64,000 bases of DNA from an uncultured Acidimicrobiales bacterium (GTDB lineage: Bacteria; Actinomycetota; Acidimicrobiia; Acidimicrobiales; VFJN01), in the NCBI GenBank assembly GCA_963739835.1, contig CAVUBW010000024.1, forward strand, positions 386,840 to 450,839. Reading direction: 5' to 3'. The first letter of the stretch is position 1. Each line of letters starts with the position of its first letter. Of the stretch, positions 9,423-56,126 are shown piece after piece. The notes under the pieces were generated by a model. That model did not search any database, was not told the DNA's origin, and was given only the letters and a program-made list of their open reading frames with translations. The translations under genes were made by a program, and so were the position numbers.

Positions 9423-10061
9423 TTGAGTGGTCGGATGCTCCCCGCCCTGCTCACCGGCCTGGGCCTGGGCGCCCTCGTGGCCGCACAGGTGGGCCCGGTG
9501 TCGCTCCTGTGCATCCGGACCACCCTGCGCCACGGCTTCGCCCCCGGCCTGGCGATCGGGGCCGGCGCCGCCGCGGTCGACACGGTCTACGGCGGGCTGG
9601 GCATGGCGGGCGCGGCGACGGTGATCGGGTTCGGCCCGGTGCGGGTCGTGCTGGGCCTGATCGGCGCCGGTGTGCTGGCGGCGATGGGCCTGCGGACGCT
9701 GCGGACCGCGCACCGCGTGCGGATCGGGCTGGAGATGCCGGCCGAGGTCGTCACCCCCGGCCGGGCTCTCCGGACCGCCCTCGCCGCCACCGCCTCGAAC
9801 CCGTTGACGATCGCCTCCTGGGCAACCGCGTTCGCCGCGGCCTCGACCGCGTCGGTCGTGGCGGGCTGGAGCGACGGCGTGGCGCTCCTGGTCGGGATCG
9901 GCGCCGGCAGCGTGGGCTGGTTCGCCGTGCTGACCTCGGGCGTCGCGCTGGCCGGCCGGCGGTTGGGCGACCGGGCGGTCCAGGTCGCCGACGTGGTGGC
10001 GGGCGCGGGGCTGGTCGGGTTCGGCGCCCTGCTGGGCATCCGGTCGCTGCGGGACGCCTGA
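9423..10061 (+). CDS. LysE/RhtB-family amino-acid exporter
   Basis: Clean 212-aa ORF, about 6 TM, ...LRHGFAPGLAIGAGAAAVDTVYGGLGMAG...ASNPLTIASW. The ATG at 9435 is the more likely start. Confidence 0.75.
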   Translation: MSGRMLPALLTGLGLGALVAAQVGPVSLLCIRTTLRHGFAPGLAIGAGAAAVDTVYGGLGMAGAATVIGFGPVRVVLGLIGAGVLAAMGLRTLRTAHRVRIGLEMPAEVVTPGRALRTALAATASNPLTIASWATAFAAASTASVVAGWSDGVALLVGIGAGSVGWFAVLTSGVALAGRRLGDRAVQVADVVAGAGLVGFGALLGIRSLRDA

Positions 10062-10062
10062 G

Positions 10063-11283
10063 CTACAGCGCCAGCGCCAGGTCCTGGACGGCGACCATCG
10101 GCAGGCCCCAGCGCAGGGCGAAGCGCTCGAGGTCGGCCTCCCCGGCCATCGTCCCGTCGGGATTCATGACCTCGCAGACGGCCGCGACCGGCGGCAGACC
10201 CGCGCCGCGGCACAGCGCCACGCCGGCCTCGGTGTGACCCCGGCGCTCGGCCAGCCCGCCGGGCCTGGCCCGCAGCGGGAACACGTGGCCCGGTCGCAGG
10301 AAGTCCTCCGGTCGCGCCTCCGGGTGGGCCAGGCGGCGGACCGTCGCCGCCCGGTCGGCCGCCGACACGCCGGTGGCCGTGCCCTCGGCCAGGTCGACCG
10401 ACACGTGGAAGGCCGTGCCCTGGCGGTCGCCCTCGCCGGGCATCGGGGGGATCTCCAGGCGGTCGAGGATCTCGCCGGCGCACGGGATCGTCGTGTGGCC
10501 GCAGGCCTGGGTGAGCAGGAACGCGAACGCCGCCGGCCGGAGCGTCGCGCCGGCGAAGACCACGTCGCCCTCGCCCTCCAGGTCCGGGTCCCAGACCACC
10601 ACGCCGCCGCCCGCGGCGATCTGGGCGACCGCCTTGTCGGCGGCCACCCGTCCCTCCAGCCGGCCCGCCCACGGCAGCGCGCCAACCACCTTGGCCAGGG
10701 CCGCCGTGGGGGACTCGGGCCAGCGGCGGGCCACGAGGCCGACCACGTCGGTCTCCAGGTTGACCCGGTCGCCCTCCTCGACGGCCGCCAGCGTCGTGCC
10801 GGCCAGGGTCGTCGGGACCAGGGCCACCGAGAACCGGTCCCGGACGACCTCGGCGACGGTCAGGCTCACGCCGTCGACCGCCACCGAGCCCTTGGCCACC
10901 AGGCCGTCGAGGAACCGGCGGGGCGGCCGGATCCACAGCCGGCGGCCGGGGCCCTCCGCGTTGCGGCCGACCACCTTGCCGACGGCGTCGACGTGGCCCT
11001 GGACCAGGTGCCCGTCGAGCGGGTCGCCGGCGCACAGCGGCGGCTCGAGGTTGACCGGCGTGCCCGGCGCCCACTCGTCTGCCACCGACCGGTGCCGGGT
11101 CTCGGCCATCACGTCGGCCCGGAAGCCCTCGGGGGTGACGTCGGTGGCGCTCAGGCACACGCCCGACACGCACACGGAGCCACCGGGCTCCAGCCCGGCG
11201 GCGGTCTTCGGCGCGGCCACGACCACGCCCTCGGCGTCGAGGTCGACGACGTAGCCGACCTCACGGATCCGTCCCGTGAACAC
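10063..11283 (-). CDS. ribE-ribB: riboflavin synthase alpha chain fused to 3,4-dihydroxy-2-butanone-4-phosphate synthase (single 406-aa ORF)
   Basis: RBS ggagga then GTG 11283: VFTGRIREVGYV...GDPLDGHLVQGHVDAVG...GVSLTVAEV...DRVNLETD (RibE). No stop follows, then ...GEGDVVFAG...TAFHVSVD...TGVSAADRA...RPGHVFPL...RRGHTEAGVAL (RibB). The region has no frame breaks. Confidence 0.8.
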   Translation of the reverse strand: MFTGRIREVGYVVDLDAEGVVVAAPKTAAGLEPGGSVCVSGVCLSATDVTPEGFRADVMAETRHRSVADEWAPGTPVNLEPPLCAGDPLDGHLVQGHVDAVGKVVGRNAEGPGRRLWIRPPRRFLDGLVAKGSVAVDGVSLTVAEVVRDRFSVALVPTTLAGTTLAAVEEGDRVNLETDVVGLVARRWPESPTAALAKVVGALPWAGRLEGRVAADKAVAQIAAGGGVVVWDPDLEGEGDVVFAGATLRPAAFAFLLTQACGHTTIPCAGEILDRLEIPPMPGEGDRQGTAFHVSVDLAEGTATGVSAADRAATVRRLAHPEARPEDFLRPGHVFPLRARPGGLAERRGHTEAGVALCRGAGLPPVAAVCEVMNPDGTMAGEADLERFALRWGLPMVAVQDLALAL

Positions 11284-11351
11284 GATGCATCCTCCACGAT
11301 CGCCGGCGCCCCGCGGGCGGCCGGCACGACGAAGGCGAGAAGAGCGGGTGC

Positions 11352-11478
11352 CGTCCTCGGCGGAGCGGGGTGTACCGCATGGCCCCGGAGTTCCACCGGG
11401 TCGTCCCGCCGGGGGGCGGGACCGGCGGGCTGTGACCGCCGCACCTGGGAGTTGCGCCTCGCCCCGTAGGGTAGCCGA
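11352..11478 (-). promoter_or_regulatory. FMN riboswitch (RFN element) in the leader of ribE-ribB
   Basis: Minus strand: ...cggggcgaggcgcaactcccaggtgcggcggtcacagcccgcc...gacccggtggaactccggggccatgcggtacaccccgc... Resembles the two conserved RFN halves (GGGGYG..AA.TCCC..CGGCGGT.A.AGCCCGC and GA.CYGGTG.AA.TCCGG.GCC..CGGT). Boundaries approximate. Confidence 0.65.
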
Positions 11479-11540
11479 CACCCGACGGGTTTTCGGTCCC
11501 CGGCGGCGATGTCACACCTCGCCGGTACAGTCGGTCAGCG

Positions 11541-13598
<2,058 letters not shown>

Positions 13599-44164: not shown

Positions 44165-45293
44165 GTGCCCGACCGTCGCCGTCGCGTTCGCCCGCGTGCT
44201 GCGCGGCGCGGGCCTCGACGTGCCGGTCGGCGTCGACGGTCGTCGTTCGCCGCGCGCGCTCGCCGCCGTCGGCGCTCGACCGGCGCGCCGGCGTCTACTG
44301 GGCCGGCCGGGCGACGCTGGTGCGCCGGCCCGAGGACATCGCCGCCTACGACCGCGCCTTCGCCGCGGTCTTCTGGGCGGCCGGGCCGCCGTGGCGACGC
44401 CCGTGGTCGGCGACGCCGGTCCAGGTCGTGCTCGACGCTGGCCGACGACGACCCGGTCGCCGGCGCCGACGGCGCCGACCCCGAGCCGCCCGGCGACGAG
44501 GATCTCGCGGGCGCTGCGGTGGAGCGCCACCGAGGTGCTGCGCCACCAGGACTTCGCCACCTACACGCCCGCCGAGCTCGCCGAGGCGCGCCGGCTGATG
44601 GCCGACCTGCGGCTCGCCGGCGCGCTGCGCCGCTCGCCGGCGCCGGCGCCGCGCCAGCGCCGGCCGCGGGGCCGCCCGACCTGCGGCGCACGGTCCGCCG
44701 GTCGCTGCGCACCGGCGGCGAGCCGATCGCCCGGGCGTTCGACCGAGCCCGGCGAGCGGCCCCGCCGGCTCGTGCTGCTGCTGCGACGTCAGCGGGTCGA
44801 TGGAGCCCTACGCCCGGGCGCTGCTCCGGTTCGTGCCACGCGGCGGTCGTCGGGCGCCGGCCAGGTCGAGGCGTTCGCGCTCGGCACCCGCCTCACGCGG
44901 CATCACCCGCGAGCTGTCGACCCGCGATCCCGACGCGGCGCTGCGCCAGGCGGCGCGACGCGGTCGCCGACTGGTCCGGCGGCACCCGGCTCGGCGAGGG
45001 GCTGCGGCGCGTTCAACGACCAGCTGGGGCGTGCGCGGCATGGCCCGCGGCGCGGTCGTCGTGATCCTCTCCGACGGCTGGGACCGCGGCGACCCCGACG
45101 TGCTCGGCCGAGCAGATGGCCCGGCTCGCACCGGGTCGCCCACCGCGTCGTCTGGGTCAACCCGCTGAAGGCGACGCCCGGCTACGCGCCGCTCGCCCGG
45201 GGCATGGCCGCGGCGCTGCCGTACGTCGACGAGTTCGTCGAGGGCCACTCGCTGGCGTCGCTCGAGGCGCTGGCCGAGGTGATCGGGCGATGA
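44165..45293 (+). CDS. VWA-domain protein (CoxE-like), many +1 extra bases
   Basis: ...FARVLRGAGLDVPVG...GVYWAGRATLVRRPEDIAAYDRAF...LRHQDFATYTPAELAEARRLM...LVLLLDVSGSMEPYARALLRF...FALGTRLTR...VVILSDGWDRGDP...VVWVNPLKATPGYAPLARGMAAALPYVDEFVEGHSLASLEAL. Confidence 0.8.
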
Positions 45294-45315
45294 CGACGAT
45301 CGGAGGCCGTGCTCG

Positions 45316-46445
45316 ATGAAGGAGATCGCTCGACGACATCGACCGCTGGCGCGCCGCGGGCGCACCGCGGTCGCGGTCGCCCGCGTCGTCGACCTCGACG
45401 GCTCGGGCCCGCGGCTGCCCGGCGCGGCGATGGCCGTGAGCGAGCGCGGCGAGGTCGCCGGCTCGGTGTCGGGCGGCTGCGTCGAGGGCGCGGTCGTCAC
45501 CGAGGCGCTCGAGGTGCTGCGAGACCGGCGAGCGCGGCGATCGTCACGTTCGGCTACTCGCGACGACGAGGCGTTCGCCGTCGGGCTCACCTGCGGCGGC
45601 ACCATCCACCTCTTCGTCGAGCCGCTCGACTGGTGAGCCGGTCGGCGACCGCTCTACGACGACGCTGCGCGGCCGCGCATCCGGCGCCGAGCGAGCCGGT
45701 CGCGCTCGCGACCGTGATCGACGGGCCCGGCGTCGGCGCCAAGCTGCTCGTGCGGCCCGACGGCGAGCCGCGTCGGCACGCTCGGCGACCCCGACCTCGA
45801 CCGCGTCGTCGCCCGCGACGCCCTCGGCGAGCTCGAGGCCGGGCTCGACCGCGGTGCGCCACTACGGCGCCCACGGCGAGGCCCGCGAGGCGGCCGTGGC
45901 GGTGTTCATCGAGTCGTTCGCGCCGCCGCCGCGGATGCTGATCTTCGGCGCCGTCGACTTCACCGCCGCGCTGGCCAAGGTGGCGCAAGGTGCTCGGCTA
46001 CCGCGTCACCGTGTGCGACGCCCGCGAGGTGTTCGCCACCCGGGCGCGCTTCCCGATGGCCGACGAGGTCGTCGTCGACTGGCCCGACCGGCTGCTGCGA
46101 CGCGGTCGGCGCCACGCTCGGCGCCGCGCGACGCGGTCTGCGTGCTCACCCACGACCCCAAGTTCGACGTGCCGGCGATCGTCGGCGCGCTGCGCGACCG
46201 ACGTCGGCTACCTCGGCGCGATGGGCAGCCGCCGCACCCACGCCGACCGGGTCGAGCGCCTGCGCGAGGCGGGCGTCGACCGACGACGGGCCTCGCCCGG
46301 GTCATGGCGCCGATCGGGCTCGACCTCGGCGCCCGCACGCCCGAGGAGACGGCGGTCGTCGATCTGCGCCGAGATCATCGCCCAGCGCACGGGCCGGGCC
46401 AATGCCATGTCGCTGCGCGACGCCGACGGGCCGATCCACGCGTAA
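45316..46445 (+). CDS. XdhC/CoxI-family molybdenum cofactor insertion chaperone, many +1 extra bases
   Basis: ...AVAVARVVDLDGSGPRLPGAAMAVSERGEVAGSVSGGCVEGAVV...AVGLTCGGTIHLFVEP...PVALATVIDGPGVGAKLLV...PPPRMLIFGAVDFTAALAKVA..LGYRVTVCDAR...THDPKFDVPAI...YLGAMGSRRTHADRVERL...APIGLDLGARTPEE. Confidence 0.8.
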
Positions 46446-46454
46446 CCTCGACGG

Positions 46455-47030
46455 ATGACCACCGCCGCGATCGTGCTCGCCGCCGGCGGGGGGTCCCGCT
46501 ACCGGGCCTCCGGGGGCGACAGCCACAAGCTGCTGGCGCAGTACCTGGGCCGCACGGTGGTCGAGTGGTCGATCGAGGCGGCGGCGTCCGCCAACCTCGA
46601 CGCCACGTACGTGGTCCGGGGCGCGACCGACCTGCCGGTCCCGCCGCTGGCGGCTGAGGCGGTCCGCTTCGTCCGCAACGACCGCTGGCAGGAGGGCATC
46701 GCCACATCACTGCAGGCCGGCATCACCCGGGCCCGGCGGGACGGGCACGCGGCGGTGGTGGTCGGCCTCGGCGACCAGCCCCTGGTGCAGACCGAGGCGT
46801 GGCGCCGGGTGGCGGCGACGTCGCGGACGCCGCTGGCCGTGGCGACCTACGACGGCGTGCGGGGCAACCCCGTCCGGCTGTCGTCGCTGGTGTGGCCGCT
46901 GCTGCCCACGCGAGGCGACGAGGGTGCGAAGGTCGTGATGCGGCGGCGGCCCGACCTGGTGGTGGAAGTACCGTGTCCTGGACGTTCCGCCGACATCGAT
47001 ACGGTGGACGACCTCCGCGAGTGGAGCTGA
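46455..47030 (+). CDS. MobA/MocA-like nucleotidyltransferase (molybdenum cofactor cytidylyl/guanylyl-transferase family)
   Basis: Clean 191-aa ORF MTTAAIVLAAGGGSRYR...KLLAQYLGRTVVEWSIEAA...VVVGLGDQPLV... Confidence 0.75.
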   Translation: MTTAAIVLAAGGGSRYRASGGDSHKLLAQYLGRTVVEWSIEAAASANLDATYVVRGATDLPVPPLAAEAVRFVRNDRWQEGIATSLQAGITRARRDGHAAVVVGLGDQPLVQTEAWRRVAATSRTPLAVATYDGVRGNPVRLSSLVWPLLPTRGDEGAKVVMRRRPDLVVEVPCPGRSADIDTVDDLREWS

Positions 47031-47042
47031 CTTCCCGAGGGG

Positions 47043-47849
47043 ATGGCGATGGAGCTGACCAACGAGTTCACGGTGGGCGTACCGGTCGAGCGCGCCTGGG
47101 AGGTCCTGACCGACGTCGAGCTGATCGCCCCGTGCATGCCGGGCGCCCAGCTCCAGGAGATCGAGGGCGACGAGTACCGCGGCATCGTCAAGATCAAGGT
47201 CGGCCCGATCACGGCCCAATACAAGGGCGCGGCCCGGTTCGTCGAGCGTGACGATGCAGTCCACCGGGCGGTCCTGCGCGCCGAGGGCCGCGACACGAGG
47301 GGCCAGGGCAACGCCAGCGCCACGATCACGATGACCCCTCGGCGGCGGCGAGTCGTCGACGGCGGCCCAGGTGGTCACCGACCTGACGATCACGGGCCGG
47401 GTCGCCCAGTTCGGCCGGGGCGTGCTCGGCGACGTGAGCAGCAAGCTGCTCGGCCAGTTCGTGGACTGCCTGGAATCCAAGCTGCCGTCCGACCAGGCGG
47501 CGGCAGAGCCGGCCGCCGCGCCGGTGCCGACCGAGCCGCCCGCGGAACCGGCGGCGCCCGTGCAGGGCCACGGCCCGCTGGACATCGCGTCGGAGGGCGC
47601 GGCGGCCACGCGACCCTCGAGGACGCCGCCGCGGCCGGCGCCGAGTCGGCCCGCCTCGACGGCACGTCCGGCCCGGCGATCCGCGTGGTCGACGGCCCGG
47701 AGGCCCAACCGGTCGACCTGGTCGAGGCCGCAGGCGCCCCGATCGCCAAGCGCGTGGCCCCGGCGGTCATCGGACTCACGTTCCTCTGGCTGCTCAGCAT
47801 CTTCGTCCGGCGCCGCCGCCGCTCCCGCCGCAACCGCCGGGCGGGCTGA
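47043..47849 (+). CDS. coxG: CoxG-like SRPBCC protein with C-terminal membrane anchor; three extra bases
   Basis: MAMELTNEFTVGVPVERAWEVLTDVELIAPCMPGAQLQEIEGDEYRGIVKIKVGPITAQYKG... then VVTDLTITGRVAQFGRGVLGDVSSKLLGQFVDCLESKL... then ...VIGLTFLWLLSIFVRRRRR. Confidence 0.8.
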   Translation: MAMELTNEFTVGVPVERAWEVLTDVELIAPCMPGAQLQEIEGDEYRGIVKIKVGPITAQYKGAARFVERDDAVHRAVLRAEGRDTRGQGNASATITMTPRRRRVVDGGPGGHRPDDHGPGRPVRPGRARRREQQAARPVRGLPGIQAAVRPGGGRAGRRAGADRAARGTGGARAGPRPAGHRVGGRGGHATLEDAAAAGAESARLDGTSGPAIRVVDGPEAQPVDLVEAAGAPIAKRVAPAVIGLTFLWLLSIFVRRRRRSRRNRRAG

Positions 47850-48053
47850 GGCCCGACCGCCACCGCGGTCGTCGCCGCACGGCATGCGCCTCCGCGGGGA
47901 GTGGGCCGCGGCTGTCCTCGACTCGGGATCGGCCGGCCAGAGCGCTCGGACGGTCGCCAAGGCGCAGTCGCTCCGTCGTCGGTTCACCGATCACGGACGA
48001 TCGGTCCACGACTTCGACGAGCGCCTTCGGGCCACGCGGAACTAGTCGCTGCC

Positions 48054-48533
48054 ATGCCGAGGATCGCCGTGAGCGGCCACCGGGGGTTGCCTCCCGAGGC
48101 TGAGGAGCTGATCCGAGCCGTGCTGCGAGCGACCCTGACGCGGCAATCGCCGGAGGAGCTGGTCGGCGTCTCGTGCGTCGCCGACGGGGCGGACACGCTG
48201 TTCGCACAGGTCGTCCTGTCGTTGGGCGGACGACTCGAGGTCGTCGTGCCGGCCGACCAGTACAGGGACGGCCTGCCAGGCGGGCACCACGCCATGTACG
48301 ACCGCCTCGTTGCCGCCGCATCGGTCGTGCATCGCCTGCCGTTCCGCGAGTCGACGCCCGAGGCCCACATGGCCGCCTCGGAGCGGATGCTGGATCTCGC
48401 CGACGAGCTGGTCGCGGTCTGGGACGGGTTGCCCGCCCGGGGCTACGGCGGCACCGCCGACGTCGTCGCCGTCGCCCGTGATCGCGGCATGCCGGTGACG
48501 GTGGTTTGGCCCCCCGGCGCCCGACGCGACTGA
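48054..48533 (+). CDS. hypothetical Rossmann-like protein (SLOG/DprA-like pattern, family not certain)
   Basis: MPRIAVSGHRGLPPEAEELIRAVL...LVGVSCVADGADTLFAQVVLSLGGRLEVVVPADQY...LVAVWDGLPARGYGGTADVVAVARDRGMPVTVVWP. The longer track ORF from 47901 has a poor N-terminal extension. Confidence 0.55.
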   Translation: MPRIAVSGHRGLPPEAEELIRAVLRATLTRQSPEELVGVSCVADGADTLFAQVVLSLGGRLEVVVPADQYRDGLPGGHHAMYDRLVAAASVVHRLPFRESTPEAHMAASERMLDLADELVAVWDGLPARGYGGTADVVAVARDRGMPVTVVWPPGARRD

Positions 48534-48611
48534 CGGGATCAGTCCGATTGGGCCGCCACAGCACCCGCGGTCAGAGTTGTCCGTCCTGCCCGGACCACCG
48601 GGCGAGGCCAC

Positions 48612-48676
<65 letters not shown>

Positions 48677-48695
<19 letters not shown>

Positions 48696-49374
48696 CGAAC
48701 CCTGAGTACACGGCCACCGGCCCCGACCTGCGCTCTTCCGTCCGGGTGGTACGTGAGGTTCACGCCCAGCTCGTCGTAGATCGCGTGTTTGTCTGCGGGT
48801 CGGCGTCGGCTAGGACGCGACGATGTCTTTGGGCTGGCGCACGAGGGCCTTGATCTCGGCCGTCGTGAGCTTGCGGGTGGCCGGCTTGCGGCGGAGCTCA
48901 CGCTCGATCCGCCTGCGCTCCCGCTCGACCTCGGCGATCCAGGTGGCGACCACGGTGATGTTGGCGTCTTGTTCGAGGAGCTGCCGGTACCGGGCGAGCT
49001 TCGTGTTGCACTCCTTGAGCTGTCGGCGCAGGTCGAGTACGCGGCCCTCATCGTCCTCAGGCTCGAGGTCGCTGACCGCAGCCAAGGCCTCGCAAGTGCT
49101 GTCGAGGTGCTCGTCGTCGAACAGGCTGGCGATCCACGTGTCGACGCCGGCACGATCGCGGCCTCGCGGACGTAGACGGTCCTGGATGCTGGCCCTCAGC
49201 GACCGCGTACTCAGACGGGAACTTGCATCGGTAGTACGCCTGGCCGTGGTTCCATGATCCCTGCATCTTGCGACCGCACTGCGCGCAGCGGACCATGCCC
49301 GAAAGGACATAGGTGTTGCGGGTTTGCTCCGGCGGGACTTGGCCCGTTGCGCGGGCCGGGTGGGGCGCTGCCAC
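48677..49374 (-). pseudogene. large serine recombinase, C-terminal part only (zinc-ribbon and coiled-coil), at least four frame breaks, catalytic N-terminus missing
   Basis: ...NTYVLSGMVRCAQCGRKMQGSWNHGQAYYRCKF / RTVYVREAAIVPA / VDTWIASLFDDEHL...ARYRQLLEQDANITVVATWIAEVERERRRIERELR...KALVRQPKDIVAS / LADADP / ADKHAIYDELGVNLTYHPDG. The 3' end runs into the tRNA. The GAF-ANTAR gene stop at 49381 replaces where the resolvase domain should be. Confidence 0.75.
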
Positions 49375-49380
49375 GGGTGA

Positions 49381-50118
49381 TCAGGAGGAGTCGATGGTTC
49401 CTGCCTCCCAGGCCCTGGGATCGAGGGTGCCGTCGATCGCGGCCTGGGCGACGTCGGTCAAGTGACGATTGTGGTCCCGGGCGTATTTCCGGAGCCGGGA
49501 GAACGCTTCGGCCATGTCGATACCTGCCCGCTCGAACACCACCCCCTTGGCTTGCTCGATCACGATTCGGCTCGTCAATGCGTGGGTGAGTTGTTCGTTC
49601 ACGCGCTGCGACTCGGTGGCGGCTCGTTGTTGGAGGACCGCGATGGCCGCGAGGTCCGCGAACGCTCGGGCCACCAGCACGTCGGCCTCGTCCATCGGAG
49701 TCTCTTCGGTGCTCACCAGGTTGAGGGCGCCGATGGTCAGGTCGCGGAGGCGCAGAGGCACGGCGAACGCTGACTGGAAGCCCGCCTCGACTGCCACCGC
49801 GGCGAACCGCGGCCAGCGGCCGGTTCCGGCGCGGAGGTTCTCATGTTGGACGCGCTCGCCGGTGCGAAACGCATCCAGGCAGGGGCCTTCCCTCGCCTGC
49901 AGCTCGAACAGCTCCAAAACGCGCATTGCTTCTGACGATGAGGCAACGAGCCGCAGATCACCGCTCGGCGAGGCGAGCATCACGCCCGCGGCAGCGGCAC
50001 CGAGCAGATGCACGCACCGGTCGGCCAAGCCGGTCAACAGATCGACCACGTCGAAGTCGGCGGTGAGCGTGTCGGCCAGGTCGACGAGGGACTGCACAAC
50101 ATCGCCCTCGCGGGTCAT
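49381..50118 (-). CDS. GAF plus ANTAR domain RNA-binding regulator
   Basis: Clean 245-aa ORF: ...DRCVHLLGAAAAGVMLASPSGDLRLVASSSE...EGPCLDAF...FAVPLRLRDLTIGALNL (GAF), then ...LTHALTSRIVIEQAKGVVFERAGIDMAEAFSRLRKYARDHNRHLTDVAQAAI (ANTAR). Confidence 0.85.
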   Translation of the reverse strand: MTREGDVVQSLVDLADTLTADFDVVDLLTGLADRCVHLLGAAAAGVMLASPSGDLRLVASSSEAMRVLELFELQAREGPCLDAFRTGERVQHENLRAGTGRWPRFAAVAVEAGFQSAFAVPLRLRDLTIGALNLVSTEETPMDEADVLVARAFADLAAIAVLQQRAATESQRVNEQLTHALTSRIVIEQAKGVVFERAGIDMAEAFSRLRKYARDHNRHLTDVAQAAIDGTLDPRAWEAGTIDSS

Positions 50119-50152
50119 CTCGATCCTCCGTTCTCCGCGACGACGTGGGAGG

Positions 50153-50971
50153 TCATTCGAACCTGAACCTTCGGGCCACGACGTCTTCGGCGACGTCGCG
50201 CAGCAGCCGGTCGTTGCTGAAGGCGTAGGCGCGCATCCGGACCAGTGCCTCGGTCACGCTGATCCCGAGCTGGACGGAGACCGCGCCGGCCGCGTTGTGC
50301 ACGATGTAGTGGAAGTCGGAGTCGTGCTCGAGCTCCTCGGCCATCGCGCCGGGGGGCGCGTTGGCCTGGACGTCCAGCACCCACTGAGCGAGGACATCCG
50401 CCATCACCAATGCGTCGGCATGCTGGTCGTCGGTCAGCGGCCCGGGACCATCGCTGTAGAGGTTCAGGGCGCCGAGCCTCACGGTACCCACCTGCAGCGG
50501 GAACGCGAACAGAGCCCGCACGCCCGCCTCGACCGCCCGTGGCGTGAACGCAAGCCATCGCGTGGTACTCGGATGCGCCAGGTCGGGCTCCAGCACGACC
50601 CGGTCCATATGGTAGGCGTCCACGCACGGACCCTCGCCCAGCGTGAACTGCAACTCCTCGATCAGGTTGCTCACATCGTTCGTAGTACACAGCGAACCCC
50701 GCGGCACCTCGCCCGACATGAGCATCACCCCGGCTCCTGACACACCGATGACGTCGCGGGTGACCTCACACAACCGAGACGAGGACCACCCGCCGTCACC
50801 GTCGGCCGACAGCTCCGCCAGGATCCGCGACAGCCGCTCGCCTGTCACGAGGGCCCTCTGCCAACTCCGGGCGGGCCGACGTGCCTCGTGCCGGCCTGTG
50901 TCCAACGATCCACCGACCGCCTCCTTGGCTCGAGAGGAAGACGTCAGCAGGGTCCGGTCCAACGCAGGCAT
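50153..50971 (-). CDS. GAF plus ANTAR domain RNA-binding regulator (second copy); start uncertain
   Basis: ...LCEVTRDVIGVSGAGVMLMSGEVPRGSLCTTND...GEGPCVDAY...FAFPLQVGTVRLGALNLY (GAF), then ...FHYIVHNAAGAVSVQLGISVTEALVRMRAYAFSNDRLLRDVAEDVV (ANTAR). The track ORF extends to 51208, but that part belongs to another small frame. Confidence 0.8.
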   Translation of the reverse strand: MPALDRTLLTSSSRAKEAVGGSLDTGRHEARRPARSWQRALVTGERLSRILAELSADGDGGWSSSRLCEVTRDVIGVSGAGVMLMSGEVPRGSLCTTNDVSNLIEELQFTLGEGPCVDAYHMDRVVLEPDLAHPSTTRWLAFTPRAVEAGVRALFAFPLQVGTVRLGALNLYSDGPGPLTDDQHADALVMADVLAQWVLDVQANAPPGAMAEELEHDSDFHYIVHNAAGAVSVQLGISVTEALVRMRAYAFSNDRLLRDVAEDVVARRFRFE

Positions 50972-50997
50972 CCGAGATCCGGACAGCAACCTCTGTG

Positions 50998-51208
50998 TCA
51001 CACGATACGCCCTGTCACCACACGATCGCCTCCGAGCCCGGACGACATCGACGGGTCGAGGCCGACATCGGGATCGTCGCAAGCCAGCGTGGGCCGGAAC
51101 AGATCGAGCAGCTCGGCGAGCATCGCCCTCCAGCAGATCCTCCCCCGGCATCACGATGATCGCCCGGGTTTCCTGCTCCACGACGTTGGCTCGCGTGGCC
51201 GTGATCAT
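50998..51208 (-). CDS. small ORF (~69 codons after removing one extra base at 51121), weak STAS-like pattern
   Basis: MITATRANVVEQETRAIIVMPGEDLLEGD then LAELLDLFRPTLACDDPDVGLDPSMSSGLGGDRVVTGRIV. GC3 stays high only if the frame is changed at gat|g|ctc. The ATG overlaps the upstream stop (ATGA). Confidence 0.35.
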
Positions 51209-51960
51209 GAGCGTGACTGTCTCCTGCGCTTGTCTCGCGGCGAACTGGCAGACAGACGATGTCGACCGCGTCCCGGATCGTGGCTGCAGCCCGGCTCGGC
51301 CGCCGTGAAGCGTCGCACGCGGTCGCGACCCGGCGCCCCATCCTGGGGGGCCGCGGCTCGACGCCTGCCTCGGATGGATCTGGCGCCGTTGGGTGCTCCG
51401 ATCAACTCATGGCCGTGGGTGATGGCGATCCTGGCGTGACGTACGAGCCGCGTGGCCTCGGTGATGCCTTCTCGGGTGCTGGGCGGTGCATCGCTTGCGA
51501 CGGCATCGGTCCAGAGCCCGACGAGGAGGCGGTCGACCTGCAAGAGCGCATCTGCGGCCTTCTCGACGATGGGCTCGGCCTCCGAGGAAGAGTCGCTGCT
51601 CGAAGGTTCAAGATTGGGTCGAGACCACGAGCTGTCGCGGGGCTGGGCGGCGAGGGCAGTGTGGCGGAGTCCCCGCACCAGTCCGTCGAGGTCGTCGATG
51701 GCCTGGTCCAGCCGAGCCGAGGCGAGACCTCCGTTCAGGCTCCGAGCGGCCGCCAACGTCAGCGAGACTGAGAAGATGTCCTGAACGACGCGATCGGCAA
51801 GCTGAAGGCAAAGTTGGCAGTCGGCTGGGGCGGGATCTGGCTGTGATTTGGGTGCGGGCGTCGGTGGCTCGATATCGCCGCGACCACGGGCAACCCTCGG
51901 TGTGCGATTCGCAGTCGCCTCTGGAACCGGAGTGCCGCCCGCCGCGGAGGCTGTGGGCAT
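51205..51960 (-). CDS. hypothetical protein with a HisKA_3-type H-box helix lacking the histidine; no ATPase domain
   Basis: MPTASAAGG...CLQLADRVVQDIFSVSLTLAAARSL...DQAIDDLDGLVRGLRHTAL... Compare the NarL-group kinase H-box LHDxVIQxLFAVGLxL. The C-terminal third has poor GC3, so the end is uncertain. Confidence 0.45.
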   Translation of the reverse strand: MPTASAAGGTPVPEATANRTPRVARGRGDIEPPTPAPKSQPDPAPADCQLCLQLADRVVQDIFSVSLTLAAARSLNGGLASARLDQAIDDLDGLVRGLRHTALAAQPRDSSWSRPNLEPSSSDSSSEAEPIVEKAADALLQVDRLLVGLWTDAVASDAPPSTREGITEATRLVRHARIAITHGHELIGAPNGARSIRGRRRAAAPQDGAPGRDRVRRFTAAEPGCSHDPGRGRHRLSASSPRDKRRRQSRS

Positions 51961-52253
51961 CACGCTGTCTCGGTGCGGAGTGCGAAGTCGAGTGTGGCGA
52001 TCGCTCGCTCGGTGGTCTCCGTAGCCCGTTCCGTCGCAGCGCGGAGTACGCGGGCGCGTGCTCGGTGAAGCACCCCGAGGTCGCCACCCACAGACTCCAG
52101 CAACCGGAGGGCAGCAACGTGGGGAGACCAGGCCTCGTCGAGGATCACCCGAACAAGGTGAAGCATCGCGGCATCGGTGCTCGGGCGACGCGGACAAGCC
52201 GTCCGGGGTCCCGAGGTGTCGGGCGAGGGTGCATCGGGGCGTTCTGTCTCCAC
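51960..52253 (-). CDS. small hypothetical protein, first gene of the minus-strand cluster
   Basis: ...MLHLVRVILDEAWSPHVAALRLLESVGGDLGVLHRARARVLRAATERATETTERAIATLDFALRTETA. Its stop overlaps the next ATG (TGATG). Confidence 0.4.
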   Translation of the reverse strand: METERPDAPSPDTSGPRTACPRRPSTDAAMLHLVRVILDEAWSPHVAALRLLESVGGDLGVLHRARARVLRAATERATETTERAIATLDFALRTETA

Positions 52254-52463
52254 GTCGGCGCCTCCTGTGGCGATAGTCGCCGGGGTCCGGAGCGACGTGG
52301 TGTGTCAACACACGAGAAGGTCGCACGGTAGGTGCGCTACCTGCCGCTGCGAAATAGGGTCAGCCCTAAACCTCGGTGGGGGACACCCCCACTCGCTCAC
52401 CCAGATCCGCCCTTCGCGAGGTCGGCCAAGTCGTCTAGAGGGAGAAACAGGGAGGAGTCGGCG

Positions 52464-53156
52464 GTGTCAGAACAGTCGGAGGAGACGACGCGAGTAGCTA
52501 TTGCGAGCGACTACTTCCTCACACGCGAGGGCCTCGCGTGCCTCCTCTCGGGTGTCGACGGTATCGACGTCGTCGCACGGGTCGCGTCCCACGCTGACGT
52601 CGTCGATGCGGTCCGGCGCGATCGGCCAGATGTTGTCGTCGTCGGCATCCGCGCTGGACAAGTAGCGGCGGAGGAGACGCTCGCCGCTGCCGCCCAGCTC
52701 CGTAGCGAGCACCCTGAGGTCGCGATCGTGGTCGTCGCGCTCGAAGGCGACCACTTCGCCATGGAGCTACTACGTCGCGGGTCGTGTGGCAGCGCGTTTC
52801 TGCTCGATGATCGGATCACCGATCTCGACGTTCTCGCGACGGCCATTGCCCAGGCCCGAAGCGGGCAAGTGACGCTCGACTCCGCGGTTGTCGACAGCCT
52901 CGTCCACCGGCGGACAGGTTCGAGGCTCGACGAGCTCACACTCCGGGAACTCGACGTGTTGGCCGAGATGGCGAAAGGGCACTGCAATCGCGTCATCGCG
53001 GAGGATCTGTCGATCTCGACCAAGGCTGTGGAACGGCACGTGACCAGCATCTTTCGCAAGATGCGCGAGTTCGACTCCAAGCGATTCGATCCCCGAGTGG
53101 CGGCGGTCGTCACGTACATCGGTGCCTTTGGATCGGTGCGTGCCCCGGACAGATGA
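52464..53156 (+). CDS. LuxR/NarL-family regulator with a degenerate (pseudo-)receiver domain
   Basis: RBS agggaggag then GTG 52464. The receiver fold aligns with the neighbouring NarL regulator, but DD is SD, the phospho-Asp is Gly (ggc 52644-52646), Thr is Ala and Lys is not conserved. C-terminal HTH: ...LTLRELDVLAEMAKGHCNRVIAEDLSISTKAVERHVTSIFRKM. Confidence 0.8.
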   Translation: MSEQSEETTRVAIASDYFLTREGLACLLSGVDGIDVVARVASHADVVDAVRRDRPDVVVVGIRAGQVAAEETLAAAAQLRSEHPEVAIVVVALEGDHFAMELLRRGSCGSAFLLDDRITDLDVLATAIAQARSGQVTLDSAVVDSLVHRRTGSRLDELTLRELDVLAEMAKGHCNRVIAEDLSISTKAVERHVTSIFRKMREFDSKRFDPRVAAVVTYIGAFGSVRAPDR

Positions 53157-53479
53157 CCGCGTCTTGGCGCACCGACTTGGTGCGCGGCGCGACACTCGAG
53201 CGCCCGGCAGGCCGAGTCGCCGCCGCGGTGTGCGACGTCGCGCTCGCGGCGCCGCTGGACGGTACGGTGGAGATCGGCGGTCCCGAACCATTGCGGTTCG
53301 AGGACTTCGTCCGGGAGGGGTTGCGTGCCGTGGGGGACCGCCGCACGGTGGTCGCCGATCCCCGAGCCCGGTACTTCGGCGGCCGCCTGAGCGAGCGCAC
53401 CCTCGTGCCGGGCAACGGCGCCCGGCTCGCGGCGACCCCATACGACGACTGGCTCAGTCAGCGGGCACAAGGGAGCTGA
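53153..53479 (+). pseudogene. NmrA/SDR-like NAD(P)-binding protein, C-terminal third only
   Basis: ...LAAPLDGTVEIGGPEPLRFEDFVREGLRAVGDRRTVVADPRARYFGGRLSERTLVPG...TPYDDWL. The Rossmann N-terminus is absent. Confidence 0.55.
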
Positions 53480-53861
53480 CCCAGCGGCATCGATCCGCCG
53501 GACGAGACACGGTGCGGGCGGATGATGACGGCCAGCGGTGCGGCTCCATTGCGGCTGTACTTCGAATGGCGCCCCTAGGTTCGGTCCGGCCGCCGGGGTT
53601 GCCCGAGACCGACGGAGTCATGCCGAGACAGGGAACACGCCACCCAACTCGCCGGCTTGCCAATCAGCTTGCCAATCGACTTTCGCGGGCAGACGCCTGC
53701 AGGCGATGTCGCCGGCGCAGTTCACGCATCGTCTGCCCCGCTCAGCGCTTGGAAGCGGAGTTCCCAGCACCTTGCCAAGGTGGCGACACGGCTTCGGATC
53801 CCGTTGGGAGTGCCCATGCGGGGAAGCATCATGCTGCGACCAACCAGGCCTGCCAGGGGTC

Positions 53862-53910
53862 GCGTGTACTCAGGGTTTGTGTCGCCCCTCCGACACGAAC
53901 CCCAAGAGCC
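53862..53910. repeat. attR-like junction with dyad symmetry
   Basis: gcgtgtactcagggtttgtgtcg-cccctc-cgacacgaaccccaagagcc. The left arm matches the reverse complement of 48691-48713 at 21 of 23 positions. Confidence 0.6.
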
Positions 53911-53985
53911 GCTCGTGCTCCCGCTCGACCTCCGCGATCCAGGTCGCCATCACGGCGATGTTGGCCCTCGGCGACCGCGTGTGGA
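53905..53985 (-). pseudogene. second, tiny remnant of a related serine recombinase 3' region
   Basis: The minus strand encodes ...ANIAVMATWIAEVEREHERL, paralogous to DANITVVATWIAEVERERRRI of the first remnant. DNA similarity to 48930-48970 is visible by eye. Confidence 0.55.
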
Positions 53986-54010: not shown

Positions 54011-54676
54011 TTACGGCGTGCTGCGGGGCGCGACCAGGCCTGATTCGTAGGCGAGCACGACGAGCTGGGCGCGGTCGCGGGCGTGGAGCTTGGTCATGGC
54101 CCGGCTGACATGGGTCTTGGCGGTCGTGGGGCTGATGACCATGCGGGCGGCGATCTCGTCGTTGCTCAGCCCGCGGGCGACGAGGGCCACGACCTCGCGC
54201 TCGCGGTCGGTGAGCTCCTCCAGAGCGTCGGCGACCCGGCGGTCGGGTGGCCGGGACACGTACTCGCTGATGAGCCTGCGGGTGATCGCCGACGCGAGCA
54301 GAGCGTCGCCCCGGGCGGCGACCCTGACCGCATGCAGCAGGTCGACGGGCTCGATGTCCTTGACCAGGAACCCGCTGGCGCCGGCGCGCAGTGCGTTGAA
54401 GACGTGCTCGTCGAAGCCGTAGTTGGTGAGGATGACCACGTGCACACCGGCCAGGCGCGGGTCGGCCGCGATGCGCCGGGTGGCCTCGATGCCGTCCAGG
54501 ATCGGCATCTGTACGTCCATGAGTGCGACGTCGGGCACATGCTCGACCGCCAGGGCGACCCCCTCGTCTCCGTCCGCGGCTTCGGCCACGACCTCGATGT
54601 CGTCCTCGGCGTCGAGCAGGGCGCGGAAGCCGCCGCGGATCAGCGGCTGGTCGTCGGCGAGCAGGACCCGGATCAC
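54011..54676 (-). CDS. NarL/LuxR-family response regulator (canonical receiver)
   Basis: VIRVLLADDQPLIRGGFRALL...PDVALMDVQMPILDGIEA...VVILTNYGFDEH...GASGFLVKD...LTDREREVVALVARGLSNDEIAARMVISPTTAKTHVSRAMTKL. GTGA overlap with the kinase gene. Confidence 0.9.
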   Translation of the reverse strand: MIRVLLADDQPLIRGGFRALLDAEDDIEVVAEAADGDEGVALAVEHVPDVALMDVQMPILDGIEATRRIAADPRLAGVHVVILTNYGFDEHVFNALRAGASGFLVKDIEPVDLLHAVRVAARGDALLASAITRRLISEYVSRPPDRRVADALEELTDREREVVALVARGLSNDEIAARMVISPTTAKTHVSRAMTKLHARDRAQLVVLAYESGLVAPRSTP

Positions 54677-55848
54677 GAGGCCGCGCTGGTCCCGTTCCCG
54701 GCGGCCGGGAGCTCGGCCCGCACGGTGAAACCGCCCTCGGGCCGCGGTGCGGCGCGCAAGCGGCCGCCGAGGGTCGTGACCCGCTCCCGCATGCCGATGA
54801 GCCCCGTCCCGGGAACCGGTGCTGCCGTGGGGGTGGCCAGCCCGTCGTCCTCGATCTGCACCGCCAGACCGTCGGGGCGGTAGTCGAGTCGGACCGACAC
54901 GGTGGCCGGTCGCCTGGCGTGACGGCCGACGTTGGTGAGCGCCTCCTGGACGATCCGGTACGCGGCTCGATCGACCTCCGCCGGCAGCGAGCGCTCGTCT
55001 CCACTGACGGTGACCGTGGCGGGAACGCCTGCAGCCCGGGCCCGCTCGACCAGCTCGTCCAGCCGGTCGAGCCCGCTGCCTGGCGAGTCGTCGCCGGCGG
55101 CGTCCGCGATCCCGGTCCGCAGCACGTCGAGGGTGGCGCGCAGCTCGCGGGTGGCGTCGCGGCTCGCCTCCTGGATGGCGAGGAGCGCCTCGGGCACCTC
55201 GTCGCCTCGCTTGCGGGCCAGGTGAACGGCCACGCCGGCCTGCACTTTGATGACCGAGATGCTGTGGGTGAGCGAGTCGTGCAGCTCCCGCGCGATCCGC
55301 AACCGCTCGTCGGCGGCCCGTCGCCGGGCGGTCTCCTCCCGCGTGCGCTCGGCCTCGGCCGCCCGCTCCTCGGCCGCCCGGACCGCCGCTTCCCGCTGCC
55401 GGGACACCTCGGCGGTGACGCCGGCGGCCACGATCCACCCAAGGGGCAACCGCCGCTCCATGAGATCACGCACCGTCTCGCCGGCCGCAGGGCTGGCCGT
55501 CAGCGCGCCGACGACCACGGCGCACCCGGTGACCGCAGCCGTGAGCGCGGGGTGACCGGCCCGCACTGCGGTGTAGACCGCGACCAGCACCGGGACCGCG
55601 GTGACCTCGGGATAGTCACGCAGCTGGTAGCCGAGCACGCACGCCAGCACGACCAGCAACACCGCCACCGGCGCACGCCGGCGCAGGAACAGGACCAGCG
55701 CCGAGGCCACGAGCAGCAGGTACCCGAATGCATCGAGGGCGTTCGCGCCCGCCTTCCCATGGGGCGCAGCCACCACGAGGAACGCGGCCGAGCCCAGCGC
55801 CCACGCCGCGTCCCGCCAATCAGAGCGCCAACGACGACCAGGCTCCAT
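54673..55848 (-). CDS. sensor histidine kinase, HisKA_3 plus HATPase_c (NarX/DesK type), membrane N-terminus
   Basis: MEPGRRWRSDWRD..., about 4 TM, ...ADERLRIARELHDSLTHSISVIKVQAG (H-box)...AYRIVQEALTNVGRHA (N-box)...DDGLA...GTGLIGMRERV. Confidence 0.88.
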   Translation of the reverse strand: MEPGRRWRSDWRDAAWALGSAAFLVVAAPHGKAGANALDAFGYLLLVASALVLFLRRRAPVAVLLVVLACVLGYQLRDYPEVTAVPVLVAVYTAVRAGHPALTAAVTGCAVVVGALTASPAAGETVRDLMERRLPLGWIVAAGVTAEVSRQREAAVRAAEERAAEAERTREETARRRAADERLRIARELHDSLTHSISVIKVQAGVAVHLARKRGDEVPEALLAIQEASRDATRELRATLDVLRTGIADAAGDDSPGSGLDRLDELVERARAAGVPATVTVSGDERSLPAEVDRAAYRIVQEALTNVGRHARRPATVSVRLDYRPDGLAVQIEDDGLATPTAAPVPGTGLIGMRERVTTLGGRLRAAPRPEGGFTVRAELPAAGNGTSAAS

Positions 55849-56126
55849 GCAACCGAGCGTAGGGGCAGCGTGCCGGCCTTCACATCCTCCCCGGGAAGGC
55901 ATCTCGCACTACTACCAGCGATGTAGGTACGGCCCGACTGCATCCCACGCAGGATGTGCAAGAGCCTTCCCAGGGCCGACGACAGGCACCCGCCGGGCCG
56001 TCACCATGCGTCCCATGACCCTGCGAACTGCTCTCGACACCCGCATGACCACCCGGCCGGCGACCGCCCCGCTCACGGTCGGCGACGCGTGGGAGGTGGC
56101 GTGATGCTCCGCAGACTCGTGACCTG

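Follow-up and report, generated by a model that had tools for sequence, protein, structure and literature searches.

A decayed island at tRNA-Leu(GAG), probably inserted by a large serine integrase and stacked on an older relic

The 64,000-nt stretch of DNA analysed here (the window), from an uncultured Acidimicrobiales bacterium, very probably carries at its tRNA-Leu(GAG) gene the remnant of a decayed mobile element that was inserted by a large serine integrase, next to what is left of an older element. The initial annotation had already described a decayed island at this tRNA with the att junctions of a large serine recombinase, and relatives in the same position together with a contiguous attP now support that description. 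The right-hand boundary has to be read differently.

Boundaries and content of the island

The junctions comprise the following features:
48612..48695, + strand: intact tRNA-Leu(GAG) gene (ARAGORN; Rfam RF00005, 52.8 bits; sequence)
48667..48684, + strand: candidate B half-site of attL, GCGTG-G-GGGTTCAAGTCC (sequence; conserved in 12 tRNA-Leu(GAG) loci with the same core)
48677..49340, − strand: large serine recombinase relic 1, with zinc ribbon, coiled coil and C-terminal region (Pfam, tblastn, DNA alignment)
48685..48702, + strand: direct repeat copy 1 (repeat search; shuffle test)
48691..48713, + strand: candidate P' half-site of attL, CGACACGAACCCTGAGTACACGG (sequence and inverted-repeat search; same arm at L016, L025 and L033)
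53829..53884, − strand: candidate P half-site GCGTGTACTCAGGGTTTGTGTCG (53862-53884) and displaced 3' end of the integrase ORF
53885..53902, + strand: direct repeat copy 2, core plus displaced tRNA 3' end (repeat search; shuffle test)

The tRNA gene extends from 48612 to 48695 in the Rfam call and to 48696 in that of ARAGORN, and its final 8 nt, CTCCGACA (48688-48695), come from the inserted element. The 18-nt direct repeat reported earlier, CCCCTCCGACACGAACCC, was recovered as two exact copies in the window, at 48685-48702 and 53885-53902. This is far above chance, as 0.03 matches with two or fewer mismatches are expected in the window and two matches occurred in none of 100 shuffles. At 87% identity the repeat stretches to 30 nt (48673-48702 against 53873-53902). 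The first six bases of copy 1, CCCCTC (48685-48690), form the core, while the displaced tRNA 3' end lies within 53885-53895. An intact tRNA gene and a displaced copy of its 3' end thus bound DNA of foreign composition, which is an Islander-type signature.

The arms at 48691-48712 and 53863-53884 are inverted and complementary at 21 of 22 positions; the 21 of 23 originally counted over 23-nt arms was confirmed, with a chance expectation of 0.00. Self-complementarity of the T-arm and acceptor of the tRNA, raised at the outset as a possible full explanation of this similarity, does not account for it, since the tRNA takes in no more than 5 nt (CGACA) of the left arm and the partner arm lies 5 kb away.

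The repeats enclose 5.2 kb of DNA with a GC content about 7 points lower. In the composition plot proposed with the initial annotation, GC shifts from mostly 0.70-0.82 upstream to 0.66-0.70 at ~48.75-54.0 kb and to 0.72-0.76 beyond. The cargo consists of:
49381..53479, unstranded: island cargo as a whole (Pfam and NCBIfam scans; GC 0.66-0.70)
49381-50118, − strand: GAF-ANTAR regulator (Pfam/NCBIfam)
50153-51208, − strand: GAF-ANTAR regulator (Pfam/NCBIfam)
about 51205-52330: ORFs without family assignment (Pfam/NCBIfam scans)
52332-53156, + strand: NarL/LuxR-type response regulator (Pfam/NCBIfam)
53153-53479, + strand: 108-aa ORF without family assignment (Pfam/NCBIfam scans)

Domain scans of the island revealed no conjugation (FtsK/Tra) or replication (RepSA) genes, and no match to the tyrosine integrase domain (PF00589) was obtained in ten scanned ORFs, nine from the island and one from upstream of the tRNA. 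In five syntenic relatives, no counterparts of the cargo adjoin the tRNA.

A degraded large serine recombinase gene

The relic beside the tRNA is of the large serine recombinase type, as first proposed. The ORF at 49057-49374 matches PF13408 (Zn_ribbon_recom; E = 1.4e-7, 32.2 bits, cut-off 25.3) and contains the zinc ribbon motif CAQCGRKM...YYRC, and tblastn aligns relic 1 (49326-48680) with residues 347-564 of L029, an intact large serine recombinase of 563 aa. Its final codons, VGGGT and a stop, enter the tRNA 3' end as had been noted, the TGA stop being the complement of 48677-48679 in the T-loop. Of the domains for which a search had been suggested, the zinc ribbon was thus found, whereas the Recombinase domain (PF07508) is absent from relic 1, whose start lies past it. 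The lack of a Resolvase catalytic domain (PF00239) was likewise verified for relic 1, the GAF-ANTAR gene already starting at 49381. The window copy is a fragment of a large serine recombinase gene and not a functional member of the class; as the N-terminal 346 residues with the catalytic and recombinase domains are missing, the island cannot move itself.

The coiled coil was assessed on a close homologue, P0003 (86% identical to the stitched relic 1), rather than on the frameshifted window sequence. Its AlphaFold model (mean pLDDT 79) has long antiparallel helices at residues 226-252 and 257-279, corresponding to a coiled-coil hairpin. The best 22 Foldseek matches of this model in the PDB are all large serine recombinase-DNA complexes, headed by SPbeta (5.5e-9) and followed by phiC31, Bxb1 and LI, and the family profile matches the SPbeta, Bxb1 and A118 integrases in the PDB.

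Aligned with five homologues at the DNA level, relic 1 shows four frame breaks, every one a -1 deletion in a short run of C or G. The type of lesion and the immobility of the element agree with the initial annotation, but the weight that it gave to the frame breaks needs correcting. The core genes of the window also carry many frame breaks, so frameshifts are weak evidence of decay; sequence quality may contribute, and single-base differences in the window are to be read with caution.

Architecture of the recombination sites

Tyrosine integrases employ long arm-type attP sites, and large serine recombinases short dyad-symmetric ones. From sequence conservation and the inverted-repeat search we infer the B, P' and P half-sites. 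The B half-site would run from the end of the variable arm through the T-stem 5' strand and the T-loop to the second nucleotide of the T-stem 3' strand. The P' half-site completes the tRNA 3' end and on its minus strand encodes the integrase residues RVLRVRV. In attP-type sites the blocks GCGTGTACT and AGTACACGC flank a dyad of 14 + 6 + 14 nt, and from this symmetry the CC at 48687-48688 is predicted to be the crossover dinucleotide.

The attP palindrome reconstructed in the initial annotation, with arms matching at 21 of 23 positions around CCCCTC, has a natural counterpart: the 52-nt site is contiguous in L098, where 51 of 52 positions agree. Moreover, at least 120 metagenome contigs contain the P arm with the core, and eight of these also bear a tRNA-Leu (GAG or AAG).

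A (G/C)CGTG block is situated 1 nt outside GGGTTC in the B arm and in the B' arm of L044, and 6 nt outside it in P and P'. In LI integrase, the zinc-ribbon motif is shifted by 5 bp between attB and attP (PMC3783163). The half-sites described here are similar, being short and inverted, with an outer-motif offset between B-type and P-type arms that fits such a 5-bp shift.

Relatives carrying the same arrangement

Nine further genomes combine tRNA-Leu(GAG), the 18-mer, a [C/T/G][A/G/T]AGTAC motif and an integrase 3' end, and three more do so with a damaged tRNA. The intact integrase of L029 has Resolvase (E = 7.7e-8, with an RVSTEDQ motif), Recombinase (E = 7.4e-23) and zinc-ribbon domains. The same three are found in L148 (Resolvase E = 2.2e-10, Recombinase E = 1.4e-20), which is in the attP configuration and bears a TrwC relaxase. 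A full-length integrase relative with 55% identity adjoins tRNA-Leu(GAG) on a Streptomyces replicon. The element family is widespread but little described, and its recurring attL-, attR-, attP- and attB-type sequences would fit unidirectional recombination of attP with attB. In the L029 element no clean second copy of the core was found, only a diverged P-arm-like sequence 5.8 kb away.

The search for an empty site proposed earlier succeeded in part. L017, L044 and L052 possess the tRNA-Leu and the 18-mer without an integrase and represent unoccupied sites; none was found in a close relative, as the five syntenic Acidimicrobiales MAGs, whose 8-kb loci end before the downstream genes of the window, all hold differently decayed relics. 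Across the family the B' flanks show no conservation (1.8-2.0 bits per position).

A second, probably older relic to the right of repeat 2

The second junction contains one additional feature:
53891..53980, − strand: older attL stub and relic 2 (repeat families D2 and D20; block alignment; translation)

The initial annotation regarded the sequence right of repeat 2 as the chromosome-side half of the target, and the recombinase relic at 48677-49374 as the only one. Both points need revision, since this sequence reads as an older attL stub followed by a second relic (53907-53980), not as bare chromosome. The stub represents a CAAG-type P' arm: CAAG, the 4 nt between repeat 2 and relic 2, is the start of the commonest P' variant, and the stub ends with it at 53906. 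Relic 2, ~75 nt in all, consists of two integrase blocks of 55 nt (53907-53961) and 19 nt (53962-53980), which directly past the repeat keep the order and orientation of the integrase gene. The 55-nt block is 89% identical to L001 and 85% to relic 1 over 60 nt; relative to L001, stub and blocks are separated by deletions of 202 and 230 nt.

The reconstructed "attB" was reported to be dyad-symmetric and attB-like. Its inner 33 nt do have this appearance, because P' and B' arms share their inner 12 nt, but its best matches are attL sites of CAAG-type elements (L021, 46 of 49 positions), and the unoccupied site L044 agrees less well, at 43 of 49. The island is the newer member of a tandem pair, as far as the order of insertion can be deduced, and the "attB" is actually an old attL. 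In the tandem reading, CGACACGAACCCCAAGAGCC would be a remnant of the older element and not the native flank of tRNA-Leu.

The same junction order (tRNA, P'1 ... P1-core-P'2) would result if the 5.2-kb element had come first and a second one had entered its attR (P-core-B'), to be almost wholly deleted later together with its own attR, and the sequence does not directly fix the order. We consider this unlikely, as relic 2 is far more degraded (~75 nt, two internal deletions, no cargo or attR), which fits an older insertion, and GC is back to the host level within about 0.5 kb to its right. Where elements form tandem arrays at an RNA gene, it is normally the newest that adjoins the regenerated gene. 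The Dehalococcoides ssrA islands speak for this pattern (PMC3146451), against which the reverse order would go.

Less probable still, and disfavoured, is a single element with an ordinary attR, in which the native B' flank would start right of repeat 2 (GAACCCCAAGAGCCGCTCG after tRNA-Leu) and the integrase-like stretch would reflect coincidence or an unrelated rearrangement. Genuine B' arms such as that of L044 do have the same 12 nt, CGACACGAACCC, immediately right of the core, which gives the junction an attR-like appearance over that span. Against this stand the two integrase blocks in gene order and orientation directly beyond the repeat, the CAAG in front of them, and the closer match of the reconstructed attB to attL sites than to the unoccupied site.

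Finally, an island built by a since-lost tyrosine integrase, with the serine recombinase relic as a passenger, would account for the tRNA gene and displaced 3' end that are the standard signature of such islands (PMC4383910), but is very improbable given the absence of a tyrosine integrase domain from the ten scanned ORFs, the serine integrase ORF that runs across the core at more than 100 sites, whether in the integrated or in the attP configuration, the 21/23 inverted arms centred on the core, and short dyad-symmetric sites that follow the large serine recombinase design, unlike a long arm-type attP.

The attP site lies within the integrase reading frame

When the element is not integrated, its integrase ORF continues across the core and ends with a conserved ~20-aa tail. 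The complete ORF runs uninterrupted across attP in L148; that of L174 is open for 541 codons, to the contig end, and that of L166 is full length with one frameshift. In the window, the displaced tail, read on the minus strand from 53894 through the core, is VGGATQTLSTRDPWQAWLVAA, followed by a stop at 53829-53831. The stop occupies the same codon in 78 of 103 unique sites, and the tail consensus is ...GG[A/G]xxTxSTR[D/A]PWxxxLxAA up to the stop. Entropy amounts to 0.71, 0.74 and 1.35 bits at codon positions 1, 2 and 3, and to 1.76-1.81 bits after the stop. This pattern indicates that the tail is under coding constraint and that the P arm is protein-coding.

As attP lies within the ORF, integration removes the ~20-aa tail: the integrated gene ends in ...GGGT and a stop provided by the tRNA T-loop, and the tail is found at the far junction. 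We tentatively suggest, as a speculation that is more doubtful than probable, that this swap of ~20 aa for two tRNA-encoded residues serves as a switch of activity or directionality between the free and integrated forms, and that the enzymes rely chiefly on the half-site inside the tRNA, which would leave occupied sites open as targets. If true, such targeting would account for the frequent tandem relics. The coding P arm had no place in the initial annotation.

Proposed mechanism and history

Judging from the relatives, an integrase dimer would bind a ~52-bp attP made up of the P arm, the CCCCTC core and the P' arm, the two arms being inverted repeats. This site would have recombined with a tRNA site in which the same core lies between T-arm and acceptor end, the central CC being the likely point of exchange. 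The P' arm would have a triple role, as a binding half-site, as the replacement for the 8 nt at the tRNA 3' end, and as the code for integrase residues RVLRVRVGG. The newer element may have inserted beside an older relative, giving a right junction of P arm, core and older P' stub, then the ~75-nt older integrase relic; the newer integrase would later have lost its N-terminal 346 residues. Canonical large serine recombinases are not known to recombine attP with attL, and insertion beside a resident element consequently needs explaining. The unconserved B' flanks may provide the explanation.

Comparison with known systems

The phage large serine integrases phiC31, Bxb1, A118/LI and SPbeta SprA share with the family the three-domain layout, fold and profile matches, and short inverted-arm att sites, but structural alignments give only 12-20% identity. 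These phage enzymes target protein-coding or intergenic sites. The family instead uses a tRNA 3' end that must be rebuilt, hence the 11-18 bp of identity between attP and attB on one side of the centre, and carries attP inside the integrase ORF. A comparable gene layout is seen in two tyrosine integrases, phage Mx8 IntP and that of the fusellovirus SSV, where the gene lies across attP and its coding sequence is altered or split on integration; for phage Mx8, a change of the IntP C-terminus at a tRNA target is reported (Tojo et al. 1996, cited in PMC4383910). The enzyme family and chemistry are unrelated, and only the principle of gene layout is common to both.

In the Dehalococcoides ssrA islands (McMurdie et al. 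2011, PMC3146451), a large serine recombinase gene (DsiB) is found beside attL in reverse orientation. The target is a structured RNA gene, at its 3' end near the T-loop; the direct repeat measures about 20 bp, and the islands form tandem arrays in which some members are devoid of integrases. Gene position and strand, RNA 3' end target, repeat and tandem arrays are thus like those in the window. These islands differ in their tmRNA target and in a CcrB-like integrase paired with a second, small serine recombinase, and the passages considered do not mention an ORF across attP.

Mycobacterium integrative conjugative elements (AICEs) with serine recombinases in tRNA-Leu (Mab2101, Mflv3036, Mkan25525 and others) are a combination that Ghinet et al. 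2011 (PMC3218068) call rare. As described there, they resemble the island in their actinobacterial origin, serine recombinase and tRNA-Leu target; the host of the window belongs to the Acidimicrobiales, however, and its element is without transfer or replication genes. The passages considered make no mention of an attP inside an ORF, of the half-site layout or of tandem relics. The window island is a further case of the rare tRNA-Leu serine-recombinase elements reported for Mycobacterium in 2011. In the Mycolicibacterium relative L175 the gene is frameshifted, and identity is 61-78% over its N-terminal part but only about 31% over the C-terminal one.

Island boundaries and cargo

ARAGORN places the tRNA-Leu(GAG) gene, at the left end of the 5.2-kb island, at 48612-48696, and Rfam places it at 48612-48695 (52.8 bits). 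The 18-mer CCCCTCCGACACGAACCC is present in two exact copies in the 64 kb, at 48685-48702 and 53885-53902, where 0.03 chance matches with up to two mismatches would be expected, and the two copies are still 87% identical when extended to 30 nt. The inverted repeat formed by 48691-48712 and 53863-53884 matches at 21 of 22 positions (21/23 over the arms delimited in the initial annotation; chance expectation 0.00). Thus, the tRNA gene, the direct repeat and the inverted arms, all first noted from the sequence, are borne out. Self-complementarity of the tRNA is not the source of the arm symmetry, since the only part of the left arm located inside the tRNA is CGACA. The GC content is mostly 0.70-0.82 upstream, falls to 0.66-0.70 at approximately 48.75-54.0 kb and recovers beyond.

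The cargo kept in the island comprises two GAF-ANTAR regulators, one NarL-type response regulator and further ORFs without assignment. Neither transfer genes nor a catalytic integrase domain were found in the island, and no other large serine recombinase (LSR) was found in the window. No cargo is common to the window and the other P-arm loci beyond a homology block of at most ~260 nt at the element end. A tandem GAF-ANTAR pair, 45-50% identical to that of the window, was observed in Micromonospora (L046:5105-6542), ~5 kb from an attR-type site.

The right junction and tandem insertion

The initial annotation read the right-hand flank as the chromosome-side half of attB, and the relic at the tRNA as the only recombinase relic; neither reading holds. 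Directly right of the second repeat copy the sequence continues with CAAG, the start of the commonest variant of the element-side half-site P' (CAAGTACA), followed by integrase-gene blocks of 55 and 19 nt in which gene order and orientation are kept. Relative to locus L001, deletions of 202 and 230 nt separate these blocks from the core, CCCCTC, and from each other. Moreover, the best match of the "attB" reconstructed from the outer halves is the attL of CAAG-type elements (46/49 in L021), whereas the unoccupied site in L044 matches at only 43/49 positions. In combination, the CAAG stub, the integrase blocks and the attL-type match indicate that the right junction consists of the P arm of the 5.2-kb element, the core and the P' stub of a probably older element. 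The interpretation as an island was consequently right in kind, albeit wrong on its right-hand flank and on a single relic. What is present is a stacked island, now dead, with which the two GAF-ANTAR regulators and the NarL-type response regulator arrived.

Similar P-core-P'-relic junctions are found in L051, L098, L153 and L024. Two loci considered as free attP sites were rejected, L051 because it holds only the last ~70 integrase residues and hence represents a tandem junction like that of the window, and L035 because it is cut by the contig end. Canonical LSRs are not known to accept attL as their target. Tandem accretion of serine-recombinase elements at a structured RNA gene, as in the window, has a precedent in the ssrA islands of Dehalococcoides (PMC3146451).

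The recombinase relic and its intact relatives

The ORF at 49057-49374 (minus strand) has a Pfam Zn_ribbon_recom match, and stitching of three reading frames of the relic gives 219 residues of an LSR C-terminus. Its ORF ends in VGGGT*, with the TGA stop within the T-loop of the tRNA. The earlier description of this relic (an LSR with a zinc ribbon, reading into the tRNA and devoid of the catalytic domain) stands, save that a second relic lies right of the second repeat. The relic contains four frame breaks, each a -1 deletion within a C or G run; these were set aside as proof of decay, as frame breaks occur also in the core genes of the window.

Protein searches returned 82 homologues with up to 92% identity, the best full-length match being 90% identical. 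When the family profile was searched against the PDB, the SPbeta, Bxb1 and A118 integrases were matched; the profile was required, as a single-sequence PDB query with P0003, a homologue 86% identical to the relic, gave no match. The predicted model of P0003 contains the helical hairpin (pLDDT 79), and each of the 22 PDB entries that match it best is a complex of a serine integrase with DNA.

No protein listed in two protein searches exceeded 396 aa, despite thousands of relatives of an enzyme of ~565 aa. The notion that the family exists only as fragments was rejected, as tblastn on DNA found intact genes of 563-566 aa; the 396-aa maximum looks like a length ceiling of the searched protein collection, giving a false impression of fragments only. 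An intact 563-aa relative with Resolvase, Recombinase and Zn-ribbon domains is encoded in L029 (contig CAVQVN010000002.1), and the window relic aligns solely to its residues 347-564 (tblastn). Searches by tblastn gave no match in the phage collection and two distant matches in the plasmid collection, one of them from Streptomyces; a full-length relative (55% identity) abuts tRNA-Leu(GAG) on a Streptomyces replicon. The single match of the 18-mer in viral contigs lies inside a coding region and was judged to be due to chance.

attP lies within the integrase gene

The 52-nt attP reconstructed from the element-side halves proved to be a real contiguous site, present in L098 at 51/52 positions. 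Followed across the core and on into the P arm, the integrase frame reads VGG[A/G]xxTxSTR[D/A]PWxxxLxAA*; of 103 unique sites, 78 share the position of the stop codon. Within the tail, entropy is 0.71, 0.74 and 1.35 bits at codon positions 1, 2 and 3, and it is 1.76-1.81 bits in all phases after the stop. In L148, a complete, uninterrupted integrase ORF runs through attP into the conserved tail; in L174 the ORF spans 541 open codons before the contig ends, and the L166 integrase is full length with one frameshift. As these ORFs and the conserved tail read through attP, the site lies within the integrase gene, and integration swaps the tail for GT*. The orphaned tail is retained in the window at 53829-53894. 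A coding layout across attP is a known principle for the integrases of Mx8 and SSV (PMC4383910); the principle is common to both, but theirs are tyrosine integrases and those of the present family serine integrases. The loss of the tail upon integration offers a testable lead on the regulation of integrases whose ORF spans attP.

Half-site architecture

Half-sites of the family, from the outside to the core (architecture partly inferred; B and B', chromosome side; P and P', element side)
B: GCGTG-G-GGGTTCAAGTCC
B' (L044): CCGTG-G-GGGTTCGTGTCG
P: GCGTG-TACTCA-GGGTTTGTGTCG
P': CCGTG-TACTCA-GGGTTCGTGTCG

The outer block is 5 bp further out in P-type than in B-type half-sites, the same relation as that reported for the zinc-ribbon motif with the LI integrase (PMC3783163). 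The symmetry centre of the arms is the middle of CCCCTC, and exchange is therefore predicted at CC, 48687-48688. The need for the element to restore the last 8 nt of the tRNA explains why the identity between attP and target extends right of this centre. A conserved outer B' arm throughout the family was rejected, as the 83 unique flanks beyond CGACAC are near-random (1.8-2.0 bits per position); CCAYG after GAACCC is confined to the GAACCC sub-lineage (12 of 50 genome matches). The unconstrained B' flank may be the reason why occupied sites can be targeted again.

Occurrence across genomes

Scanning one genome per species with the 18-mer gave 50 loci. The arrangement of the window, i.e. tRNA-Leu(GAG), 18-mer, the motif [C/T/G][A/G/T]AGTAC and then the integrase 3' end, recurs in nine (L008, L013, L016, L021, L025, L026, L029, L033 and L049), and in three more with a damaged or partial tRNA. 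L017, L044 and L052, with tRNA and 18-mer followed by an unrelated flank without integrase, look like unoccupied sites. The 18-mer is followed by CCA[C/T] in 12 loci, with a P-type left arm in most; those with the P-type arm, in Micromonospora and other taxa, are attR-type sites. The 3-6 kb upstream of the island are matched at 78-85% identity in five Acidimicrobiales MAGs (L016, L025, L026, L033 and L049), which places the window in this order. An unoccupied site was not found in close relatives. The site is occupied in each of the five syntenic MAGs, whose 8-kb loci stop short of the window's downstream genes. Response-regulator and kinase genes lie at 54011-55902, right of the island.

The tRNA-Leu-targeting serine-integrase lineage added by the present work turns out to be large: about 30 att-type sites were found in reference genomes, spanning Acidimicrobiia, Micromonospora and Streptomyces, and the P arm plus core in at least 120 metagenome contigs. 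In eight metagenome contigs, tRNA-Leu and a P-core junction are found together at distances of 0.6-5.7 kb; these are islands of the same kind, decayed to different degrees.

Islands with the same P arm and core were also observed at tRNA-Leu with anticodon AAG, not GAG (L127, L143, L144 and L096); the family thus uses more than one leucine isoacceptor sharing the T-arm and acceptor end. P-arm-plus-core junctions are repeated within single contigs: L081 (1277 and 5525, spacing 4248 nt), L113 (196 and 4337, 4141 nt), L126 (6604 and 10745, 4141 nt) and L089 (122 and 575, 453 nt). This recurrence points to small elements arrayed in tandem, some of which lack a recognisable integrase.

The intact 566-aa integrase of L148 (7288-8988, minus strand), in attP configuration, is flanked (L148:1-12349) by a TrwC relaxase-helicase (9812-12349) on one side and by ThiF (E1-like), two JAB and an Apea-like HEPN protein on the other. 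These neighbours indicate that at least some members are mobilizable or conjugative, and L148 itself looks like a mobilizable element with a putative ubiquitin-like defence cassette.

Relation to known elements

Serine integrases are preferred tools for large-DNA insertion, and their textbook targets are protein-coding or intergenic sites. According to the Islander paper, tRNA genes are not among the known targets of serine integrases (PMC4383910), and in mycobacterial prophages tRNA genes are used by tyrosine integrases, not by serine integrases (PMC10654092). Ghinet et al. (2011) describe eight conjugative elements of Mycobacterium that use serine recombinases for integration into a single tRNA-Leu gene; they term such integration rare and list one phage as the only other case (PMC3218068). 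The present family has tRNA-Leu and serine recombinase in common with these elements as described. Serine-recombinase elements in tRNA-Leu are hence already published, albeit sparsely, and the window island is a further, rare case. For the window itself this is mainly an annotation result; with its well-defined attP sequences of ~52 bp and a target conserved across many Actinomycetota, the lineage could serve as a broad-host integration tool.

Sequence quality and neighbouring features

Compared with four relatives, the core genes at 44300-47850 carry ~20 private insertions of 1-2 nt in 3.5 kb and several deletions of 7-8 nt. The xdhC-like gene (45724-46439) occupies three frames in the window and one ORF in the relatives, and the coxG-like gene changes frame near 47335. 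Unlike these core genes, the ORFs of the island itself are open. The core-gene frame breaks may stem from assembly error, from real decay or from some other cause, and single-base evidence in the window is consequently unsafe.

Located between tRNA-Leu and the conserved gene on its upstream side, a 714-nt segment (47832-48545) contains an ORF of 210 aa (47901-48533) that has no Pfam or NCBIfam match. The segment is absent in all five syntenic Acidimicrobiales relatives, where homology jumps from ~47830 to ~48546. Finally, ARAGORN reported an odd tRNA at 4004-4102, its identity not called, with a four-base anticodon (tcgg).
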